Below are positions 1 through 16,618 of a stretch of 20,000 nucleotides of DNA, one piece after another (position 1 is the first letter of the stretch; each line of letters begins with the position of its first letter). This DNA comes from an uncultured virus (IMG/VR IMGVR_UViG_2061766007_000378) (lineage: Duplodnaviria; Heunggongvirae; Uroviricota; Caudoviricetes): the IMG/VR virus record IMGVR_UViG_2061766007_000378; one strand, written 5' to 3'. The position numbers and the translations under genes were made by a program. The notes beneath the pieces are model-generated. The model worked only from the letters and a program-made list of their open reading frames with translations. It did no database searches and was not told the origin of the DNA.

Positions 1-370
1 AAGCAACTTTTGCGCCGTCTTTAATGTTGGCCACAGTTGCGCCAGCATCAATACCGACAGCAATATAACCATTCAGCAGAAGGTTGATTGCTTCTCCGGG
101 TTTCGTAACAACTTCGTAAGACGGGCCAGCAGGATACTGCGTAGCCAGTTTTACATTTGTGCCGAGCAGAATGCCGGCGATATCAGAAACGGCAGAAATG
201 GCGGTAGTAGGAACAGCGTATTCACCCTGAGTTGCGCCATAGACAAGCACATCACCAAAATGAGCATCTGCGGAGCCACCAAGCAAGCCGCCCTGAACAT
301 TGTACTTATCAGAAACTGTCGGGTAACCTTTGATCAGTTTCCGAATACTTTTCTTAATGATCAGACCCAT
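1..370 (-). CDS. Head decoration/cement protein (Gp24-like), runs off the left end of the window
   Basis: Not in the ORF track. ATG at 370 with GGAGG RBS (GGAGGAAAATAACAATG); open to base 1: MGLIIKKSIRKLIKGYPTVSDKYNVQGGLLGGSADAHFGDVLVYG...IAGILLGTNVK...PGEAINLLLNGYIAVGID. The G-Y-P start, FGD motif, 'AGI' and 'L-x-G-Y-I-x-V' pattern, and the position after the scaffold fit cement proteins of DUF2213-type head modules. Confidence 0.7.
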   Translation of the reverse strand, partial: MGLIIKKSIRKLIKGYPTVSDKYNVQGGLLGGSADAHFGDVLVYGATQGEYAVPTTAISAVSDIAGILLGTNVKLATQYPAGPSYEVVTKPGEAINLLLNGYIAVGIDAGATVANIKDGAKVA

Positions 371-372
371 TG

Positions 373-930
373 TTATTTTCCTCCGTAATATTTTGCCCAA
401 GACTGAGCGATTTCATCATCAATAGCAATAGAATCATCTGTATCTACTGCTTTGGTTTCAATAGCACCAAAAGATTTCTTGGAATCATGAGTTTTGGCAT
501 CACCAATAACTTCTTCAGATTCTTCAATTTCTTCTGTTTTGTCATCTTCAGGAATTTCAAGCAGGTCTTCATCGGAATCTTTTTCTTTTGCGGGGAGACC
601 TTCGAGCTCTTCCTTTACTGACTTTTCATCCAGCTCTTCGTCGAGATCTTCTTCATCATCGTCTTTTTTGCCGGATTTCTTTTCGCCGACAAGTTCCAGA
701 AGAGCATCTGCTTTCTTCAGGAGTTTTCTAATCAGCTCAAGTTCTTTGTCAGACAGCGCCTTCGTAACAGCATCTTCACAGGATCCGTCTTTTGCACATG
801 TATCTTCGCAAGATTCGTCTTTTGCGCATGCTTCTTCGCCAGTTTTAAAACGAAGCTGCTGCGGATCTTCAGAATCTTTTGTACGACGGAGCGGTCTTTT
901 TTCATCAGTATTAATAATTCTGAATTTCAT
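373..930 (-). CDS. Putative capsid scaffolding protein (185 aa, very acidic)
   Basis: ATG at 930 just after the N-gap (MKFRIINTDEK...). Acidic low-complexity body with a short C-terminal helix (IDDEIAQSWAKYYGGK). Contains TKDS/THDS/TDDS motifs and lies directly upstream of the cement gene. The ORF track fuses it to the upstream gene through Ns. Confidence 0.65.
   Translation of the reverse strand: MKFRIINTDEKRPLRRTKDSEDPQQLRFKTGEEACAKDESCEDTCAKDGSCEDAVTKALSDKELELIRKLLKKADALLELVGEKKSGKKDDDEEDLDEELDEKSVKEELEGLPAKEKDSDEDLLEIPEDDKTEEIEESEEVIGDAKTHDSKKSFGAIETKAVDTDDSIAIDDEIAQSWAKYYGGK
772..831. repeat. Two imperfect 30-bp tandem repeats encoding ACAKDESCED / TCAKDGSCED in the scaffold
   Basis: atcttcacaggatccgtcttttgcacatgt (772-801) and atcttcgcaagattcgtcttttgcgcatgc (802-831). 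Confidence 0.85.
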
Positions 931-1076
931 TAGAANNNNNNNNNNNNNNNNNNNNNNNNNNNNNNNNNNNNNNNNNNNNNNNNNNNNNNNNNNNNNNNNN
1001 NNNNNNNNNNNNNNNNNNNNNNNNNNNNNNNNNNNNNNNNNNNNNNNNNNNNNNNNNNNNNNNNNNNNNNNNNNNN

Positions 1077-1530
1077 TTCTTAAATCATATAGATACTTAT
1101 TTTCATCATTAACCTGCAAGATATTTGAAAGAGTTGCATTTGAAATAAGCGTTATTTCTATCTGATTTTTAATGTGGTCTTCAATCGGAATAGACAATTT
1201 TTTCAATTTTTGTTCAATTGTTTTCTTTGTCCATCCTTTTTCAAAAACCCCAATAAACGCTTCGTCTATAAACTTATTAATCACTTCATTTGCCCATAGA
1301 ACGCATTGTTTTAAAATTGGCCGCGGAGGGATAGTCATCGTACCGAATTCCGTAAAGTACATAACTTCACCGAGAGTCATAGTAATTTTTGTTACTGTAT
1401 CGTCGGTATTTAAAATACTAACTTCTGCCGGAAGATGACTATCATTTAAAAGACCGAATTCTATTTTATAGTTATTGAGCGTATCAAAAACTTCAATTTG
1501 TTTAATCAAAGCTTTGATTTCATTAACCAT
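1077..1530 (-). CDS. Neck / tail-completion-type morphogenesis protein (HK97 gp10-like); 3' end lost in the N-gap
   Basis: Motifs 'KIEFGL' and 'LGEVMYFTEFGTMTIPPRPILKQ' match the EFG-x3-IPPRP signature of this family. The start abuts the protease stop codon. Confidence 0.7.
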
Positions 1531-3594
1531 TTATTTCGCCTTTCTCCACTGATCATATACGTATTCATAATCTGAACCGATTATATCAGCCAGCTTTTTA
1601 AAGCAGCGTTCACGAATGCCAGAGTCATTAACTCCAAGAGTTTTATAAACATCTTGACGAGCGTCAAGCGCATTAAAGAGATCCATAAAAGTTACGCCGT
1701 CTTTTATATCATTTCCAAGATCATCTGTCGGAAAAGTTTCGCAATACCATTCTTTGATCTTCATAGACGGGGTATCGTCATTAGAATCTTCAGTAAGCGC
1801 AGCTTTATCAATCGATTTTTCATATCCTTCAAGTTCTTCTTTAAGCGCTTCATAAAGTTTGCGGCGCTGTCTATTATAATCTTTCTTAAAAGGATTTTTT
1901 TCGATTGCATCCTCGTTTTCTCTCTTAATCCGTTTGATCTGTTTTTCGATCTCTTTCTTCCCTTCTTCGTAAAAATATTTAGAATAATCGGCATCTGACA
2001 GTTTTGCTTTTTCTACAATAGGATCAGAACCCATAACAACAATATCTTCACGATTAAGATCCGTATATTGGATCAAGTATTCAACGATTGCTTCAATAGA
2101 ATCGAAGTTATTAAAATTATTAATCAATCTTGCGTTCTGAATCTTCGCATTATAATTACCGATCGGCGTACCGTAATAAGAGTCGTTCTTTTTATAGATT
2201 ACGTATTTGTTTGCTGAATCAGTAACCGTAGGAGCAGTAAATTTTACTTTGATCCATTTATACTTGCCATCTTTGTTTTCTAATGCTTCAGCTTCTTCTT
2301 TTGAAAATTCAGGAGCATCTTTAGAATACATGTACTGAGCTTTGCCATTACCAATATAAAACAATGCTTTATTATCATCAGTCATTGTATCGTCGGCATA
2401 GATGATATATTTTTCATTGTCTTCAATTTTTACATCTCCAATATCATAACCTTCAACAAACGTAAGTGGCTCGCCATGGGATTCAATCGCTTCTTGGCAA
2501 TACGGACAGAGCCAACCAAGATTTACTTCTTTACGACAGTCTGATTTGGGATATTCTTCATCGCACCAAGCGCATTTTATAGTTTCTTCATCATTATCTG
2601 TTATACGGCTATCTTCAATGGGCTGCTTTCTTCCGATAAAATAAGCATTTACTTCGTTTACTTTCCAGTCATCAGTAGCATAGAGAGAAACCATAAACAT
2701 ATCGCTATAACCGTCAAGACTAAAATAATAATCTTTTCTATGTGCTCCGTCAACATCATACCATCCATCAATTTTCTCACGGATCGGTTCATATCCCATT
2801 GCTTTAATGGGATCAATAACTTCATTAATATCGGCGTCATGATCCATAAATTTAGATACGGCGCTGAGATATTTACTAAGTTTTCTTTTTTCAGCTGCGG
2901 GTAACATAGCAAGCTTAGTATCTTTCATATCTCGTTTCTCCCAATAAGAATTTGCAACGGCAAACCGCTGTTTTCTGTCAGGGTATTCTTTCTTAGTTTC
3001 TTTCATAAAACGAGCAAGAAAATCTTTTCTGTTTTCACCTTTACGAGGATTAACGTCTTCGATTTTTGATTTGCTATCAATTATCTTTGCAATTCCTGCT
3101 CGTCCTTCTTCGCATAATGCGATATGGTTACCACGGATATTAATCTGCTCGGGGTTATCTCCCTTAGTAATATCGCAATCATATCCGCAAGAAAGTTCGG
3201 TCCGAATTCCGTTTTCAATGTCATCTATTGTTTGAGCATCAGTGATAACAAGATCGCCGATCATTACGTCTTGCCCATTAAATTTTCCTTTACGAATATT
3301 TCTCGTATGACCAACGGCATATTCAGAATAATTATCCGGGCCGACGTTTTCATCGGGATGTTCGATCGTAATCGGTTTATCTTCAAATGACGCAAGAGCT
3401 TCTGTAGAGAATACCTGTTCGGGTTTTCTTTTCACTTTTATAAGTCTGTCTTCTCCATCAAAATCTTCATAGATTTCAGACATTAAATAATCCTGTTCAC
3501 CTGTACGAGCAAGGATTGCATCTTGACAAATCAAATATCCTTCTGGCGTCTTTGACTTATGCTCGCTAAGTTTTTCTTTAATAAGTATTCTCAT
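1531..3594 (-). CDS. DUF2213-type prohead protease with a long multi-module C-terminal extension (687 aa)
   Basis: aa 1-173 (3076-3594) carry TPEGYL, ARTGEQDY, VFS-x-EALASFEDKPITIEHP, ELSCGY and NHIALCEEGRAG, typical of DUF2213; likely catalytic His79/Ser135. GAGG RBS. The remaining ~510 aa are a string of unrelated small domains, including a CxxC...CxxC zinc finger. Confidence 0.9.
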   Translation of the reverse strand: MRILIKEKLSEHKSKTPEGYLICQDAILARTGEQDYLMSEIYEDFDGEDRLIKVKRKPEQVFSTEALASFEDKPITIEHPDENVGPDNYSEYAVGHTRNIRKGKFNGQDVMIGDLVITDAQTIDDIENGIRTELSCGYDCDITKGDNPEQINIRGNHIALCEEGRAGIAKIIDSKSKIEDVNPRKGENRKDFLARFMKETKKEYPDRKQRFAVANSYWEKRDMKDTKLAMLPAAEKRKLSKYLSAVSKFMDHDADINEVIDPIKAMGYEPIREKIDGWYDVDGAHRKDYYFSLDGYSDMFMVSLYATDDWKVNEVNAYFIGRKQPIEDSRITDNDEETIKCAWCDEEYPKSDCRKEVNLGWLCPYCQEAIESHGEPLTFVEGYDIGDVKIEDNEKYIIYADDTMTDDNKALFYIGNGKAQYMYSKDAPEFSKEEAEALENKDGKYKWIKVKFTAPTVTDSANKYVIYKKNDSYYGTPIGNYNAKIQNARLINNFNNFDSIEAIVEYLIQYTDLNREDIVVMGSDPIVEKAKLSDADYSKYFYEEGKKEIEKQIKRIKRENEDAIEKNPFKKDYNRQRRKLYEALKEELEGYEKSIDKAALTEDSNDDTPSMKIKEWYCETFPTDDLGNDIKDGVTFMDLFNALDARQDVYKTLGVNDSGIRERCFKKLADIIGSDYEYVYDQWRKAK

Positions 3595-3615: not shown

Positions 3616-5301
3616 TTATTTTTCAGATTCTTTTACAATAGAAAACTTATTTTTCGGTGCCTCTTCATGTTTATAAACTCTTCTAAACCCATCGCTATTG
3701 CTTTTAATGTTTTTAATCAATTCATCACAAAGCTTATATAAACGATCATAAGGACCAAATGCTTCTCCAGTATCTTTATCTAAAGCATAGAATCCGTCTT
3801 CATCAAAATCAATTTCAAATGGACCAATTTCATAAGTTTTATGATATTTAAAAAGCTTAGTAAGCCATTCGATATCTTTTAATTCATCAATCCATTTCTG
3901 CTTTACTTCATTTTGATGATTAATCGGATTTATATCTTTTGCTTTAGAATCAGCAAAATTATATGTATTATATTCATTAATCATAAAATTTTTAAGCTCA
4001 TCAATTGCTTCTTTATGATTATTAAAAAAGCTTTTAATGTGATTCCCATCATGATATACCCTTATCATGGTTTTTGGATCAATTTTTAAAATTTCAAATG
4101 CGAAATCTTCATATGGATTTCCGATCATAACAACTTTTTTTTCTGGAAAATCATATGTGTAAACAAAATCTAACCCTTCTGCTACAGTATCAAAATCATA
4201 TTGTTCATCCGATTTTAAAGGTTCAGAATCTCTAACTTTAGAATCCTGTAAGCTCTCATAATATTCATAATCATCCGGTTCTTCTTCACGCAGAGACGCT
4301 AACGGAATATCGTAAATATCGATCTGTTTATAACCGAGAGCGTTCAATACGCTGTCAAGGTTATCAGTATCATGACCAAGCTCTTCATCCTTATAAGTAA
4401 CGAGGATCGCCTGTTTACCGCCAATAGTTACTTTCATGATCTTAAAATCAGCGGGATCGTCGCCGTATTTTTCCCACTCTTCCTCTTCAATGACTTTGGC
4501 GTATTCAGGATCATCGGCCTTTAATTCAACAGCGTTTTCTTTAATATCATTAAGCGCTTCTTCAAAGCTGATATAGTCACCGGCCGGATCCATCCATACA
4601 TCGTCCGGATCGATTTCAAGATCGGTCCTATCAGAATATACTGCAAGTTCATAGCTTTCGGGATAGCTACCTTCCCAAGGACCGGTATAACGGCCGGGAT
4701 CATAACTAACGATTTTAACGGAATCTTTTGTCTGATTTTTTCTACGCATAGCGGTCTCCTTTTTATCTTCTTCAATTGTTTCTTCTGCTTCACTGTACGT
4801 ATCGGCAGATGCAAAGAACTTACGATTTTTCAGGATTTCAAAATGACCTTTAACTCTATTAATAATATAACTGTCTTCAGTCTCATCGATAGAATCTTTT
4901 GTTAAAATCTTTTTCTCATTCAGGTCAATTAATGCATGGCGTTCATACCTATCAAGAAGTCTCTTTGATTGATGCTTATCGGCGTCATCATATTCATCAA
5001 GAGCACATACACAAATGTTTCTAAAAACAACGTCATAGTATAATTTTCCGTCTGCGTTCTCGTCTTCAAAATCTCCTTGATCAATACCCTTCATAACGTC
5101 ATCTATTGTAAGATCAAAAATCTTATCGAGAAGCGGTTTTACGTCTTCAAAAGTTACATCTTTGTATTCCTTTTCAAGGCCGCAAAAATCAAGATAGTTA
5201 TTATTATATGTCGAAAGGTTTTCAACGACTTCATAACTTCCGGCAAAATACCTCCAACCGTTATTGTCAAACATAAATTCAACCACGGATTTGTATGCCA
5301 T
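3616..5301 (-). CDS. Acidic modular protein of unknown function, candidate internal head polyprotein (~561-563 aa)
   Basis: Long ORF. GAGG RBS spacing favours the ATG at 5301 over 5307. Repeated TKDS/TEDS/LQDS/VRDS/FADS linkers; directly upstream of the protease gene. Confidence 0.75.
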   Translation of the reverse strand: MAYKSVVEFMFDNNGWRYFAGSYEVVENLSTYNNNYLDFCGLEKEYKDVTFEDVKPLLDKIFDLTIDDVMKGIDQGDFEDENADGKLYYDVVFRNICVCALDEYDDADKHQSKRLLDRYERHALIDLNEKKILTKDSIDETEDSYIINRVKGHFEILKNRKFFASADTYSEAEETIEEDKKETAMRRKNQTKDSVKIVSYDPGRYTGPWEGSYPESYELAVYSDRTDLEIDPDDVWMDPAGDYISFEEALNDIKENAVELKADDPEYAKVIEEEEWEKYGDDPADFKIMKVTIGGKQAILVTYKDEELGHDTDNLDSVLNALGYKQIDIYDIPLASLREEEPDDYEYYESLQDSKVRDSEPLKSDEQYDFDTVAEGLDFVYTYDFPEKKVVMIGNPYEDFAFEILKIDPKTMIRVYHDGNHIKSFFNNHKEAIDELKNFMINEYNTYNFADSKAKDINPINHQNEVKQKWIDELKDIEWLTKLFKYHKTYEIGPFEIDFDEDGFYALDKDTGEAFGPYDRLYKLCDELIKNIKSNSDGFRRVYKHEEAPKNKFSIVKESEK

Positions 5302-5335
5302 GTTCATATACCTCGCTTATAAAGTTTCTATTTAT

Positions 5336-8517: not shown

Positions 8518-9600
8518 TTAATTTACTTTATATTGGCCGTTTACCTGCATCTTTTTAATAATATCAAGCGCTCTTGCTTGAATATCAAAATCAAATGCGG
8601 ATCCTCGATTCTGTAAATGATAATGTATTTCAATTATCATATACATACCGTTTTGATCAAGGTAGTTTGTATTAAACGTATCTTTAACGGATTCCGCATC
8701 CTTTATCGATACGTTTATCAACGAGTTATCCAGAATAAGAATATCGCCCGGTTTAAAATTCATTACCGGTAAAACAGACATCTGAAGACCGGCCGAAGTA
8801 ACGGTCGGGTTTCCGGAAGTAATATTGATAATATTCGGATCGATTTTTATCTTGCGTTTCTCATTGATCGTCGTAACGTCGATCAATAATCCGTCTGACG
8901 AATCTACGGAAAGATCGTATTTACCGCTTGTAGAAGTAAGGTTATCGAACACAGTCGCACAGGTTCCGTAATTATTATAGATATTCTGGAGCAGTTCTTT
9001 TTTAAGCTCCGGACTTATCCTATAATTTTCACTGCGGATCCCGCTTAATTTACACACGTAATTCAAAGCAGAATAAATATTTATCGAAGAGTTTAAATTA
9101 AAGTTTATTCTTGACTGCGAATACCTTGCAACGAGCGTGCTCGCATAACAGAAATACGTTTCCGTATCGTGAGCCGAATGGATCTTCTGGGAAATATAAC
9201 TGATCTCGCCTTTAAAGATCGTCGGCAAAGTTCCCATAGACTGATATCCGGCTTGGATCTCGATCGTAAAATATTCGTTGATAAGTATCTCAGAAATTTT
9301 ATCGTATTCGAGATTATAGATCGTAAACGTTCCTTTATCTTCGTTAAGCGAAACCTTTTTCTGTCCGGCAAGATCCATCGTAAATTGAGATTTTGGGTCA
9401 AAGTTATTAAACGACATTGACCGTCTTGCTTTTCTTGAAGTAAGGATAACGTTTATCTGCCGCATCCAGCAGATCTTTTCCTTATTGATTTCTATCGCGT
9501 CTGATGAATCGTTAATTACTTTTTGCGCTTCATCCGGAGTCACAGCTGAAGCGTAGCTGTCTTCAAGAATCACAGCCTGCCTATCGACCATTAACGGCAT
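8518..9600 (-). CDS. Baseplate hub protein (gpD/gp27-like)
   Basis: 'WMRQINV', 'FTIYNL', 'IEIQAGY', 'IFKGEI' and C-terminal 'NGMYMIIEIHYHLQNRG' are typical. TAATG stop/start overlap with the upstream gene. Confidence 0.8.
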   Translation of the reverse strand: MPLMVDRQAVILEDSYASAVTPDEAQKVINDSSDAIEINKEKICWMRQINVILTSRKARRSMSFNNFDPKSQFTMDLAGQKKVSLNEDKGTFTIYNLEYDKISEILINEYFTIEIQAGYQSMGTLPTIFKGEISYISQKIHSAHDTETYFCYASTLVARYSQSRINFNLNSSINIYSALNYVCKLSGIRSENYRISPELKKELLQNIYNNYGTCATVFDNLTSTSGKYDLSVDSSDGLLIDVTTINEKRKIKIDPNIINITSGNPTVTSAGLQMSVLPVMNFKPGDILILDNSLINVSIKDAESVKDTFNTNYLDQNGMYMIIEIHYHLQNRGSAFDFDIQARALDIIKKMQVNGQYKVN

Positions 9601-11171
9601 TAGTCATATCCTCCGGCGCGAATCGCGCTATCGATCGCATCGTATATCTTTTTTACGTTATCCTGTATATTCCCTCTACTAACAACGATATAATACCCGC
9701 ACAGTAATTTTCTTACAACGGAAATCGCTCTTGCTTCTTCTTCTGTTGTTTTCCCGCCTTGGATCTTAATACTTGGATTATATAAATAAACTTGATATTC
9801 TCTCGTTGCGTCTTTAAAAATACAATTTGTATGGTAATCCATTTCATCAAACGACGTGCACGGACACCAAGAATTATTTATCATAGTTCCATTAATTCCG
9901 TCAAGCGTCACGGCAGTACCGACATTATTAGGCGTACTAACGTTCATTTTCCATCCGAATACTGTAGAAGTATCTTCTGCAAATTCGAGGTAATACGGAC
10001 GATTTCCAATATTTAATACGACTTCTCTCGGGCTGTTATCGTCTTGGCCGTTGCTAATACTATAAAACATACAGTCGGATTCGATCGCAAGGATATTATC
10101 TTTTACGTCAATAAGAAGTTTATTAAGGCGGTTTACTTCAGATTCATTAACACTAATATTATTAATATTAGCCATTAATTTAGCTTCGTCAAGCGTTCCG
10201 TCTTTAGTAACGTATTCTTCAAATTTATTAATTAACTTAAACGCTTTGGCGCGTCTTTCTTTTTCTTTTACCCTTGAAACAATCGTCCAAATAGTAAGGC
10301 CCATACCGATCGCAATCGCGGCTACCGTGGCAATGACCGTGCCTACCGGAACGACCGGAGTAAGCGCTGCCGATGCGCCAAGACCCGCGGCGATGGCAGT
10401 GCCGATATTTGCGGCAAGAATACCGGCGCCTATAATCAAAGAAGCGGCAACGGCAGAGATTAGCTCTCCAACTAGCGCGCCGACAATAATCGTGCCTACG
10501 CGGGCCATGATTCTTAATACATCGTTTTCAATATATCCGTTAGCGGCAAGCGCCGTAATAACGATCCTTGCATACGGGCTGTCTTCTTCGGATTCGCCTA
10601 TCATAATCTGTCCGAGCGTTCTTGCCGGCGGCATTACGATATTAGGCAGATCTTCGTCGTCTTTAACTTCATACTCTTGGATCTTTACGGTAATGATCTC
10701 TTTAAACGAAAGACTATACTGCATCGACGTCTGATTTTCGATCCAGCTGACGCGCTCGAGCGCCATATTTTCGCGGATCTTAAATCTCGTTTCAGATGAA
10801 CCGGCACTTGTAGTGCGTATAGTCGTCAGCGTGCAAAGGATCCCGTTGTCTTTAATATATTCAAACACGGACTGGATTTTTGCGAGTCTTCCGGGATCCG
10901 ACTCAATATCTATGCTGTCGTAATTTTTATCGTTTGCGTATTTACCGAACATACCGAACGATCCGGAGACGCTGAAAGTATCCGGATTTCTATACATATG
11001 ATCCGCCATCGTATTACCGTTCTGTAACGGATGGGTAGGAATTGTCGAGCTGCCTTCTACATGTTTTTCATGGCACGTATCGAGAAACAGATACGTTGGA
11101 CCGCCTTCGTTTCCAAGATCGCAGCTTATTACAAGAGCAAACCCGCGGTCGTCGTTTATACTGCTTGCCAT
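9600..11171 (-). CDS. Dit-like tail-tube initiator/baseplate protein with an internal hydrophobic segment and a C-terminal extra domain (523 aa)
   Basis: N-terminal 'STIPTHPLQNGNTMADHMYRNPDTFSVSG...RENMALE...LSFKEI' is the Dit-like pattern found right after tape measure genes. aa 225-299 are almost uncharged. Confidence 0.75.
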   Translation of the reverse strand: MASSINDDRGFALVISCDLGNEGGPTYLFLDTCHEKHVEGSSTIPTHPLQNGNTMADHMYRNPDTFSVSGSFGMFGKYANDKNYDSIDIESDPGRLAKIQSVFEYIKDNGILCTLTTIRTTSAGSSETRFKIRENMALERVSWIENQTSMQYSLSFKEIITVKIQEYEVKDDEDLPNIVMPPARTLGQIMIGESEEDSPYARIVITALAANGYIENDVLRIMARVGTIIVGALVGELISAVAASLIIGAGILAANIGTAIAAGLGASAALTPVVPVGTVIATVAAIAIGMGLTIWTIVSRVKEKERRAKAFKLINKFEEYVTKDGTLDEAKLMANINNISVNESEVNRLNKLLIDVKDNILAIESDCMFYSISNGQDDNSPREVVLNIGNRPYYLEFAEDTSTVFGWKMNVSTPNNVGTAVTLDGINGTMINNSWCPCTSFDEMDYHTNCIFKDATREYQVYLYNPSIKIQGGKTTEEEARAISVVRKLLCGYYIVVSRGNIQDNVKKIYDAIDSAIRAGGYD

Positions 11172-14036: not shown

Positions 14037-16618
14037 TTATTCTCCTTCCGATGCGGCCGGAGTTTCTGCCGTATTTGCCTCCCGATTCATCTCAGGCGCT
14101 TCGTGGCCTTGCGTATATTGTTCTCTCATTTCAGAGGTTTCTACTTCTTCCGGACTCGCGTTAGGATCGAGATACGAAAGGTTTTCCGGTAATACTGATT
14201 CTTTTTCGTTTCCTCCCGGGCTTCCGAACTGACTCTGCAGGATCGACTTCGCGGTCTTCGAGCCTTTGCCGAAATTCTTGAGCGCTTCGAGGATCTGGAA
14301 CTCTTCTTCGATACGCAGGCGGTTAAGGTTCTCTTCGGAGAAGTTAACGGACACCGCGCCGTTTTCAAGGAACCCTTTCAGACTGGACGCGACCTGATAC
14401 TTACTGATAATTCCGCGATCCAGCATCGAACCTAACACGCGGTCGTAATTCTCGAGGGCTTCCATTTTGATCTTATTCCTTTCGTTCGCAACGAGCGAAT
14501 TGAACTCGAAGTCAACGGGAGCGTCTATTCCGTGGATCGCGAAAATGACCATAAGCAGCTTTTGCAGCACCGGACGATAATAGGTGTTACAGCGGTTTTC
14601 GATCGTCGTCGCGTATTTTTCCATGGATTCGGTCTCTTGCGAAAGTCCTCCGCGCAGCTCGCCGAATAACACGCCCGGCATTTCGAGCGCGGCTGCAACG
14701 AGCCACATGTTAGATTCGATCAGCTGCGAGAGACCGGTCAAGCCGGAAAACTCTCTCTGTTCGTACTCGTCGTCCTTATCNNNNNNNNNNNNNNNNNNNN
14801 NNNNNNNNNNNNNNNNNNNNNNNNNNNNNNNNNNNNNNNNNNNNNNNNNNNNNNNNNNNNNNNNNNNNNNNNNNNNNNNNNNNNNNNNNNNNNNNNNNNN
14901 NNNNNNNNNNNNNNNNNNNNNNNNNNNNNNNNNNNNNNNNNNNNNNNNNNNNNNNNNNNNNNNNNNNNNNNNNNNNGAGCTGCGGAGCGGTTCTATGTTC
15001 GTAGCGCAGCACGTACGAATGGTGTACGCGGAAACTCTTACCGTCGGCGAACGTAATATTGTACATCGTCGGCTTACCGAAATCTATATCGCGCATATCC
15101 GAAACNNNNNNNNNNTCGCAGCTCGCCGAATAACACGCCGGGCATTTCGAGCGCTGCTGCAACGAGCCACATGTTAGATTCGATCAGCTGCGCAAGACCG
15201 GTCAAGCCGGAAAACTCTCTCTGTTCGTACTCGTCGTCCTTATCGAGGAAGGTAAGCGAGTTGTACGTTCTGCCCCAGTTGACCATTTCGAGGCGCTTGC
15301 GCAGCTGTTCCTCATTGCCTTTATCCGTACCCATAAAGACACCGCGCATGCCGGACATCTTAATGACTTCGATAAGGGACTTGTTTACGAGGGAAGTAAT
15401 NNNNNNNNNNACGCTTGCGCAGCTGTTCCTCGTTGCCTTTATCCGTACCCATAAAGACTCCGCGCATACCGGACATCTTAATGACTTCGATAAGGGACTT
15501 GTTTACGAGGGAAGTAATCGAACTCTTGAGCTGGTCGTCGCGGCTTAACTCGTTCAGAATATGAGCGCCTTCCGCGTATCCCCAACCTTGGAGCTGACCG
15601 GTTTTCACAAGCTGCGGAGCGGTCCTGTGTTCGTAACGCAGCACGTACGAATGGTGTACGCGGAAGCTCTTACCATCGGCGAACGTGATATTGTACATCG
15701 TCGGCTTACCGAAATCTATATCGCGCATATCCGAAACGGTGTCCGAACCTTCCGTGCTTACTCCGTACCAGCGGTCCGTAACGTATAAACGCATGCGAGC
15801 GCCTTTGATTTTCGCGAGCTTTATCGGATTCTGCATCTCTTCGTCCGGCACGGTGTCGAACATCATGACCGCAACGGATCCTCCGAATAACGCTCCCCAC
15901 ATGAGCAGACGGATCATATCGGACTTATAGCGTCCGAAGGACTTATACGCTTTCGAAAAATCAAGGTCTCCGAACAGCGTGAATCCGCAGTTCACTTCGT
16001 CTTGCGCGGGCTTATCGATCGCGCGTCTGAACACCCAAGAGTCGTTATACAGCGCGAGCCATAACGGCCAGTTCAGCGTATCGTTGTTGAAGCCGTACTG
16101 GCTGAACGATTCTACCTTATCGGCAGTACCTGTCGCGGATAGCGTATTACGATAATGGTCTTTTATCGCAACGGAGGTTTTCGCGCCGTCGAGAAGCTTG
16201 TTTACAGTGTCTTCAAGTGTAACGTCTAACGACACGCAGTGAAACTTTTTATCGGTTCCGAGCGAAAGCCGCAACATATCCGTGTCTAATGANNNNNNNN
16301 NNAGCGAGACCCGTTACGGTGAACGTAACGGAATCGTCTGGGGTTTCCGAAGCTCCTCCGGATACGGAAACGTAAGCGGATCCTGTGGTAACGCTTGCCG
16401 AGATGTTTACGTAATTTCCCGCTTCAGCTTCAAAGTTTGCTATAAGCGACGCCGTACTTCCGACCGTAACGGACATACTGCCGGAAGGAATCAGCGTCAG
16501 GTCTAATCGTTTTGCCATCGGCTTAACNNNNNNNNNNGAGCGTAACGTCTAACGACACGCAATGGAACTTTTTATCGGTTCCGAGCGAAAGCCGCAACAT
16601 ATCCGTGTCTAATGACAT
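14037..16618 (-). CDS. Portal protein, DUF1073 / HI1409 family; one gene of ~558 aa fragmented by assembly
   Basis: True start is ATG 16618 with GGAGG RBS (MSLDTDMLRLSLG...). Main pieces are 15411-16292 and 14037-14780, bridged by the variant copy 15116-15400. Motifs 'LYNDSWVFRRAIDKPAQD', 'WGALFGGS', 'GKPTMY', 'VHHSYVL', 'GWG', 'FSGL...VAAALEMP...LFG...GGL' and 'FEFNSL' are DUF1073 portal hallmarks. Confidence 0.88.
14977..15400. other. Two redundant allele fragments of the portal gene (assembly artefact)
   Basis: 14977-15105 duplicates ~15610-15737. 15116-15400 overlaps both ~15413-15519 and ~14652-14780. Differences are almost all synonymous, and the fragments are bounded by N runs. Confidence 0.85.
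16303..16527 (-). other. Redundant allele fragment of the 5' end of the adhesin gene (assembly artefact)
   Basis: Matches ~17647-17871 with about a dozen substitutions and an identical translation over 72 aa; flanked by two 10-N spacers. Confidence 0.88.

Follow-up and report, generated by a model that had tools for sequence, protein, structure and literature searches.

Why should the protease that matures a phage head carry behind it, in the same chain, seven small domains that are unrelated to one another? The question is raised by an open reading frame (ORF) in a 20,000-nucleotide stretch of DNA (the window) from an uncultured virus of the Caudoviricetes, IMGVR_UViG_2061766007_000378. Its product, P0001, is, as judged from its sequence and its modelled fold, a capsid-maturation serine protease (DUF2213, with a T4 gp21-like fold) that heads a polyprotein. 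A first-pass annotation had noted this ORF without naming its strand, and had proposed that a recurring hydrophobic-x-Asp motif separates a prohead protease from small cargo modules, which are cut apart after Asp. The ORF is real, codes for 687 amino acids (aa) and was found to lie on the minus strand. Its parts are as follows.

1531..3594, minus strand: whole polyprotein ORF (P0001), 687 aa, ATG start, stop codon at 1531-1533; protease plus seven modules.
3076..3594, minus strand: DUF2213 serine protease domain, residues 1-173, ending AKIID173-S, a predicted self-release site.
3055..3075, minus strand: spacer SKSKIED, residues 174-180, between the twin sites D173-S and D180-V; model confidence below 50 at 174-178.
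2920..3054, minus strand: module 1, residues 181-225, ending MKD225-T; basic two-helix unit (helices 189-199 and 207-220).
2611..2919, minus strand: module 2, residues 226-328, ending IED328-S; alpha+beta unit of two helices and a four-stranded sheet, model confidence about 96.
2596..2610, minus strand: spacer SRITD, residues 329-333, between the twin sites D328-S and D333-N; model confidence below 50 at 327-335.
2434..2595, minus strand: module 3, residues 334-387, ending IGD387-V; four-Cys zinc-ribbon-like unit (CAWC...CPYC).
2419..2433, minus strand: spacer VKIED, residues 388-392, between the twin sites D387-V and D392-N; model confidence below 50 at 374-392.
2218..2418, minus strand: module 4, residues 393-459, ending VTD459-S; small beta-rich unit.
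1993..2217, minus strand: module 5, residues 460-534, ending LSD534-A; model confidence below 50 at 455-460 and 523-532.
1786..1992, minus strand: module 6, residues 535-603, ending TED603-S; long helical hairpin (helices 534-559 and 568-602).
1534..1785, minus strand: module 7, residues 604-687; six-helix domain, also found as free proteins of 75-105 aa and in polyvalent proteins.

The identity of the protease is well marked. Pfam PF09979 (DUF2213) matches residues 14-168 with an expectation value (E) of 1.2e-42 and a score of 146.2 bits, the family cut-off being 22; PHROG families of head maturation proteases match at E 4.7e-49 and 2.7e-38. When the modelled domain (residues 11-169) was compared with T4 gp21 (5jbl_B), 125 of 164 residues aligned with a root-mean-square deviation of 3.0 and a Z score of 8.4; Foldseek alone gives a weak protease-fold match (E 0.13). 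His79 (in TIEHPD) and Ser135 (in ELSCGY) are nearly invariant in the alignment of relatives and, by analogy, we infer that they form the catalytic pair; for a T1-like homologue the catalytic Ser has been named. Directly behind the protease domain, [IV]-x-D is found by pattern in 45 of 55 family members and the variants R-I-S-D or K-I-L-D in nine more, the remaining sequence being truncated. An Asp site right behind the protease domain across the family is what would be expected of a self-release cut.

The rest of the chain consists of seven units of 45-103 aa each, joined by short and poorly structured linkers that carry one or two hydrophobic-x-Asp motifs followed by a small residue. In an AlphaFold model of P0001, made from a 59-sequence alignment, these units fold independently (mean predicted local distance difference test score, pLDDT, 83.7; predicted template modelling score, pTM, 0.33). 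The pLDDT, which is the model confidence given above, falls below 50 at residues 174-178, 222-226, 327-335, 374-392, 455-460 and 523-532, with folded blocks between. The seven module ranges of the first-pass annotation match these blocks, and its ten motif positions are all exact (IID173-S, IED180-V, MKD225-T, IED328-S, ITD333-N, IGD387-V, IED392-N, VTD459-S, LSD534-A and TED603-S). Nine of the ten sit in low-confidence linkers, so that in the model the motifs fall between domains and not inside them. Nor is their frequency at borders just a matter of an Asp-rich composition, the motif Asp being enriched there and Asp overall not. Segments with pLDDT below 50 account for 13.4% of residues and have nine of the 18 [ILVM]-x-D motifs inside them or at most two residues away (binomial P 2e-4); for Asp of any kind there is no such enrichment (13 of 73, P 0.17), and the linkers hold nine of 18 motif Asp versus four of 55 other Asp (Fisher P 2e-4). 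Requiring a small residue after the motif gives 13 occurrences against 4.3 +/- 2.0 in shuffled sequence (one of 2000 shuffles reached 13), for a pattern that was picked post hoc. Homology breakpoints were counted only against proteins that are at most 70% identical: 40% of the 132 start points and 56% of the 72 end points fall at most five residues from one of the annotated Asp sites, compared with 17% of uniform positions.

Across the protease family these linkers take a stricter form. In 54 DUF2213 proteins (36,117 residues) there are 114 copies of D-S-[IVLM]-x-D where shuffling gives 4.3 +/- 2.0 (maximum 13 in 200 shuffles), and none of four control patterns departs from chance (E-S-h-x-E, 3 observed and 3.4 expected; D-T-h-x-D, 6 and 3.5; S-D-h-x-D, 3 and 4.0; reversed, 6 and 4.1). 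Copies lie 50-110 residues apart. In 75 of the 114 copies, I, F, V or L stands two positions ahead of the first Asp. The family linker can therefore be described as two overlapping hydrophobic-x-Asp sites, and it is this twin linker that the annotation had recorded in P0001 as paired motifs. Per 1000 aa the polyproteins have 2.5 strict motifs, and the remaining same-strand ORFs of these phages have 0.25. The strict motif is also present, in one to four copies, in ORFs just downstream of the capsid gene in loci L001-L009, L020 and L021 (e.g. L008 15775-17652, L002 14881-16293 and L020 14419-15639). These head-block ORFs may, on the strength of the motif, be further substrates of the protease.

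Capsid proteins provide the link between such sites and cleavage. The fetched locus includes a capsid gene in 11 close relatives. At about residues 45-60, every one of these 11 capsid proteins has the twin motif [VI]-x-D-[SA]-x-[IVM]-H-D and, directly behind it, [ASTM]-N-F, and a further F-x-D-[SA] is found near residue 20; two distant capsid proteins in the same alignment lack the twin motif. Coliphage TLS carries a DUF2213 protease (E 4.4e-23), and the Edman N-terminus reported for its capsid protein is ASDMGIW (PMC11447400). In the TLS record (L023, 15087-16061) this sequence follows K-N-Asp27 and starts at residue 28. The TLS paper infers that 45 residues are removed from the capsid protein (PMC11447400), but ASDMGIW is placed by the record as just described. 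In E217, where gp23 is a DUF2213 protein, the capsid sequence reads A-M-Asp64-Ser65-Asn66-Phe67, and the published cryo-electron microscopy model of the capsid begins at residue 66, residues 1-65 not being visible (PMC10329688). The twin motif at the propeptide boundary and the TLS N-terminus support the earlier proposal of cleavage after Asp, at sites that are predicted in P0001; the linker Asp residues are, from these sequences and by analogy, most likely where the protease cuts.

The borders marked by Asp are also those at which related proteins differ. Comparison of relatives showed the C-terminal part to be modular, as the annotation had supposed, with units gained, lost and permuted exactly at the linkers. 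When residues 174-687 were used as a phmmer query, 1780 proteins matched at E of 0.001 or lower; the matches are to single modules at varied positions and include free-standing ones. The bulk of these matches is to module 7 (about 610-685), carried in proteins of up to 2187 aa, and modules 1 (176-227) and 2 (223-330) are found at many different positions. Relatives with the same protease measure 653-1211 aa, and their units are rearranged, added or missing at the linkers: in P0003 (79% identical) a different unit replaces the zinc unit, P0006 has an insert bracketed by repeated DSKPVK, and P0007-P0009 carry module 1 far downstream. In the relatives of 1011-1211 aa, DUF2213 is the only Pfam family found. 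All ten Asp residues are retained in P0003 and in P0002 (84% identical), and P0002 has the [IVM]-x-D-small form at all ten sites. With P0001 alone as query no viral contig was found; a query made from the alignment gave 21 loci.

Units of this kind also occur without a protease in the gene next to the polyprotein.

3616-5307, minus strand: second module array, without protease, 563 aa, with the linkers TKD-SIDETED-S, TKD-SVK, LQD-SKVRD-S and FAD-SKAKD-I.

This ORF, which lies in the same tight minus-strand operon and stops 21 bases upstream of the polyprotein ORF, codes for a protein that matches no family. Its homologues exchange units at D-S-K linkers, and some append a zinc-ribbon unit after V-K-D-S-D-K-R, exactly where the 563-aa protein of the window ends. 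The two kinds of chain have units in common: residues 137-179 are shared with P0083, and P0162 shares a unit with P0011 at 69% identity. In L001 the upstream ORF carries module 1. As the upstream array lacks a protease, it would need to be cut in trans.

What the units are is less readily read from their sequences. Pfam and PHROG searches of all seven gave nothing above threshold, and no unit matches an enzyme, toxin or anti-defence family in these collections. P0001 has no Pfam family beyond DUF2213, the known effector, enzyme and LPD domains of polyvalent proteins not being matched, and 30 of 37 unit-bearing proteins scanned lack any Pfam family. Foldseek with the whole AlphaFold model found no match at E of 0.001 or lower. 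Module 1 has the consensus VNPRKGE..FLARFMKET..EYPD..QR.AVA.SYW, which across its occurrences reads PR.GES..DF..RFM.E...EYPD..QR.AVA.SYW. It stands at differing places in relatives, and Asp precedes it in 27 of 27 occurrences, with I, V, L or M three residues ahead of the cut in 25. Its core (residues 181-222; window positions 2929-3054) is the most widely shared unit other than the protease and is always bracketed by Asp; it is also seen in the protease-less proteins P0010, P0140 and the L001 upstream ORF. Module 1 might be a targeting or binding element. Module 2 matches 34 proteins, and the copies in relatives end YFTDS[IV]KD. Its fold matches are weak (AFV1 ORF-99, Z 5.4; the archaeal anti-CRISPR AcrID1, Z 4.8; NTF2-like proteins, about 4.5), and an ESM Atlas search with residues 176-330 gave no usable match. 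Module 3 has zinc-ribbon matches in Pfam that are sub-threshold, and is found alone or elsewhere in P0061, P0156, P0081 and P0131; it occurs in proteins of 75 aa and 146 aa. Module 4 forms the C-terminus of P0056, and DS[VL]K comes next in other proteins. Module 6, which the annotation had counted among the cargo (as residues 535-600), is more likely a scaffold-type helical hairpin, judging from the model and from generic coiled-coil fold matches (Z 6.5-9.3 over residues 531-605). By analogy with ordinary DUF2213 proteins, which carry such parts, it may be a scaffold or coat-binding element.

Module 7, a domain of about 75 aa, is the unit with the widest circulation. Modelled alone it reaches a pLDDT of 94.7, and D21, D54, S55, R58, F62 and W80 are invariant in 45 of its sequences. 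It has no Pfam or PHROG match, ESM Atlas gave no usable match for residues 604-687, and against the PDB a sequence profile found none, the best structural matches being E 1.6 (Foldseek) and Z 4.3 (VIA), a result that does not show the fold to be new. In two polyvalent proteins of ArdC-N/MPTase/LPD25 architecture (P0041 and P0044) module 7 lies directly after the MPTase domain, and it also occurs in a RadC-JAB protein. No match was found in cultured phages, and plasmids gave one, in an SNF2-related protein of a mobilizable plasmid.

Taking the sequence, the model and the analogies together, we consider it reasonably probable that P0001 is a protease-headed polyprotein that is packaged and then cut after Asp into mini-proteins inside the head. 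The polyprotein would be built into the procapsid, perhaps via the helical-hairpin unit 535-602. Once activated, the protease would cut after Asp at its own release site (D173-S) and at every linker, the twin sites releasing spacers of 5-7 residues, and the same protease would also cut the propeptide of the capsid protein and the neighbouring array at 3616-5307. The head would thus come to hold, in equal numbers, a 19.5-kDa protease and seven products of 5.6-12 kDa. We propose only tentatively that the folded products remain with the DNA and are carried into the host cell upon infection, like the T4 internal proteins. Pa193 gp24, which has the same gene position, is described as present in virions by liquid chromatography-mass spectrometry, with one hairpin seen under the capsid vertices. 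It is likewise conceivable, at no better than a tentative level, that the protease has become a carrier for swappable mini-proteins, such that any fold placed between two Asp sites would be packaged, released and injected, with the second array drawing on the same pool. Units would then be released at the copy number of the protease and could serve as early anti-defence or takeover factors. A role as ejected anti-defence effectors is speculative, its basis being only that module 7 is shared with ArdC/MPTase polyvalent proteins and is also encoded on its own by small genes; these contexts, and the weak fold matches of module 2, fit a role in host conflict and do not show one.

Several observations weigh against cleavage at the linkers or against its extension from relatives to P0001. 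The bare motif is not above chance in P0001 (for [ILVMT]-x-D, 23 against 17.3 +/- 3.4 in 2000 shuffles; for [ILVM]-x-D, 18 against 14.3 +/- 3.3), and the simple motif is also frequent in the baseplate hub gene at 8521-9600 (seven in 360 aa versus 11 in 687 aa here). Bare motif counts were set aside as evidence, since they fail to separate the polyprotein gene from others. The tenth site, D603, lies at the end of a long helix (602), outside the segments with pLDDT below 50, and has T in place of a hydrophobic residue two before the Asp; the same site reads VED-S in P0002 and P0003. A blind Asp/Ser profile over all pairwise homology endpoints in 54 proteins reached only 0.15-0.16 for Asp against a background of 0.097, a weak signal that we ascribe to the noisiness of the endpoints. 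P0001 and its nearest kin have no copies of the strict D-S-[IVLM]-x-D and carry looser versions, so that the tie of P0001 to the family code rests on the looser pattern. With regard to the capsid proteins, the TLS site is K-N-D-A, so that lineages differ in the residue two places ahead of the cut. The TLS cut falls six residues, and the predicted cut of the relatives four, before the first aligned column of a profile alignment whose formal probability is 3% (both proteins being PF09950). The likeness of the E217 sequence to the D-S-N-F of the relatives is by eye only, as a profile alignment of their capsid proteins to that of E217 failed (19 columns). Finally, a tblastn search of P0001 against cultured phages matched the protease part alone, with coverage of at least 80% in none of 921 records.

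These points bear on how the chain could otherwise be understood. If the motif were merely a favoured linker, binding or metal site, the protein would stay intact as a large multi-domain head or internal protein. The lack of enrichment of the bare motif in P0001 agrees with this, acidic Ser-rich linkers are common, and some polyvalent proteins, such as the N4 virion RNA polymerase, are described as packaged unprocessed (PMC5512222). We think it improbable all the same: the excess of the five-residue linker (114 against 4.3, with controls at chance) is unlike that of a merely flexible linker, the same motif stands at the capsid propeptide boundary, where cleavage after Asp has been shown in TLS, and such a site always directly follows the protease domain. 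That the long ORF is an artefact, whether a chimaeric assembly or a run of small genes read as one, can scarcely be credited, even though the window has masked stretches. The frame is uninterrupted for 687 codons with no N inside the ORF, an 81%-identical protein of 688 aa and collinear relatives come from other records, the linkers carry no stop or start signal, and the fusion to the protease is kept in 45 relatives. We rejected an assembly artefact on these grounds: the open frame, the independent relatives and the conserved fusion.

A more serious alternative, which we nevertheless hold to be unlikely, accepts that the chain is cut in the same way and takes its units to serve in assembly, as scaffold, core or size control, being degraded or expelled before or during packaging with nothing delivered to the host. 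Ordinary DUF2213 proteins are indeed protease-scaffold fusions (T1-like phages, E217 gp23, Pa193 gp24), the long hairpin of unit 535-602 resembles coat-binding scaffold elements, and no unit belongs to an enzyme, toxin or anti-defence family. Assembly parts are, however, normally conserved, whereas the units here are swapped between phages 79-84% identical and between two genes. In addition, module 7 is found outside capsid contexts, in polyvalent proteins of mobile elements (ArdC-N/MPTase) and in small genes of its own, and an acidic, scaffold-like protein is encoded separately just downstream (376-933). A single extended helical or acidic scaffold C-terminus was not found in the AlphaFold model, in which only the hairpin at 534-602 is of that kind and the other six units are globular.

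Packaging and cleavage inside the head would place P0001 among several known systems. The T4 prohead holds gp21 together with the internal proteins IPI-III and Alt, which bear a capsid-targeting sequence and are cut at [L/I]-x-Glu. In T4 the internal proteins leave the head together with the DNA, and a host defence is countered by at least one of them. P0001 would share with T4 a common protease fold, a hydrophobic residue two before an acidic cut residue and, as proposed here, the freeing of small proteins inside the head by the maturation protease. It would differ in having Asp and not Glu at the predicted cut, in its often twinned sites, in its family (PF09979), and in carrying the cargo as one string attached in cis to the protease, whereas T4 uses separate genes, each with a leader. 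No capsid-targeting leader was identified when the alignments were read, no dedicated search having been made. The head proteases phiKZ gp175 and SPN3US gp245 of giant phages cut at S/A/G-x-Glu. Their processing of many internal and ejection proteins is described as motif-directed, too (PMC5694885); these systems differ in the Glu at the cut, the separate cargo genes and the protease family.

Closer in sequence are TLS gp33, the T1-like phages, E217 gp23 and Pa193 gp24, which are of the same Pfam family and share the position before the decoration and capsid genes. The DUF2213 protease-scaffold fusions also have [IVL]-x-D after the protease domain and a capsid protein that matures after Asp. 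Those of T1-like phages are described as having a helical scaffold tail; in such fusions a single acidic or helical tail of about 200-300 aa follows the protease, whereas here seven unrelated units make up 514 aa (up to about 1040 aa in relatives). A transposon sequencing (Tn-seq) paper lists, uninterpreted, Pfam architectures in which DUF2213 occurs with NUDIX, LPD3 and DUF1073. Polyvalent proteins combine many unrelated domains in one chain, from which an embedded peptidase has been proposed to release them (Iyer et al. 2017, PMC5512222). The chains described here resemble them in having several unrelated domains each, in being mosaic, in the occurrence of units solo and in other orders, and in sharing module 7. 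In polyvalent proteins the assemblin-like peptidase is stated to be rare and always C-terminal (PMC5512222), unlike the N-terminal peptidase of P0001; the tiny units without a Pfam enzyme or LPD match and the conserved linker code set P0001 apart as well. Our literature search found no account of an Asp cleavage rule or of such chains, subscription journals being outside its coverage.

If the reading of P0001 as a packaged and self-cut polyprotein is correct, it would provide a cleavage rule for a large and barely studied protease family, namely a cut after Asp, with a residue two positions before it that depends on the lineage, and such a rule would allow the proteins packed into a phage head to be predicted from sequence. 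With hundreds of residues per phage that belong to no family, the chains offer a wealth of small proteins that fold on their own, among them module 7 with about 1,800 relatives and no known fold. Were the units delivered with the DNA, the arrangement would offer a compact means of shuffling early-acting factors and a natural design for loading small proteins into capsids.

The genomic setting agrees in kind with that of other head proteases. The gene lies in the head block ahead of the decoration and capsid genes, and a PF09950 capsid gene follows in the relative L001; in the phage of the window the capsid protein gene is located beyond the end of the window, which breaks off within the gene before it.

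2..400, minus strand: capsid cement/decoration protein, truncated by the window edge (PF22758, E 6.3e-6, 26.8 bits, just missing the cut-off of 27; phrog_563).

The neighbours (cement, baseplate hub, Dit-like and portal proteins) suggest, by sequence, a phage with a contractile tail, its tail and decoration proteins being reminiscent of those of E217, Pam3 and XM1. Megablast of the whole window against cultured phages gave no match. The next ORF begins immediately after the stop codon of the polyprotein gene. It is listed as 385 aa (373-1530, minus strand), is read across a run of N at 936-1076 and is probably two genes. Its N-terminal part has a Neck1/tail-completion PHROG match (E about 1e-7), and its C-terminal 186 aa are very acidic (14.5% Asp) and scaffold-like, with four D-S pairs. 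Further along, the Dit-like tail protein (9600-11171, minus strand; PF21821 at residues 32-169) has at about residues 225-305 some 80 very hydrophobic residues, rich in Ala, Gly and Ile, that resemble several membrane spans. The portal gene (PF06381; 14037-16277, minus strand) appears in two pieces, 15360-16277 and 14037-14741, with masked stretches between, and the tail and baseplate genes that lie between portal and protease make an unusual order for a head module.

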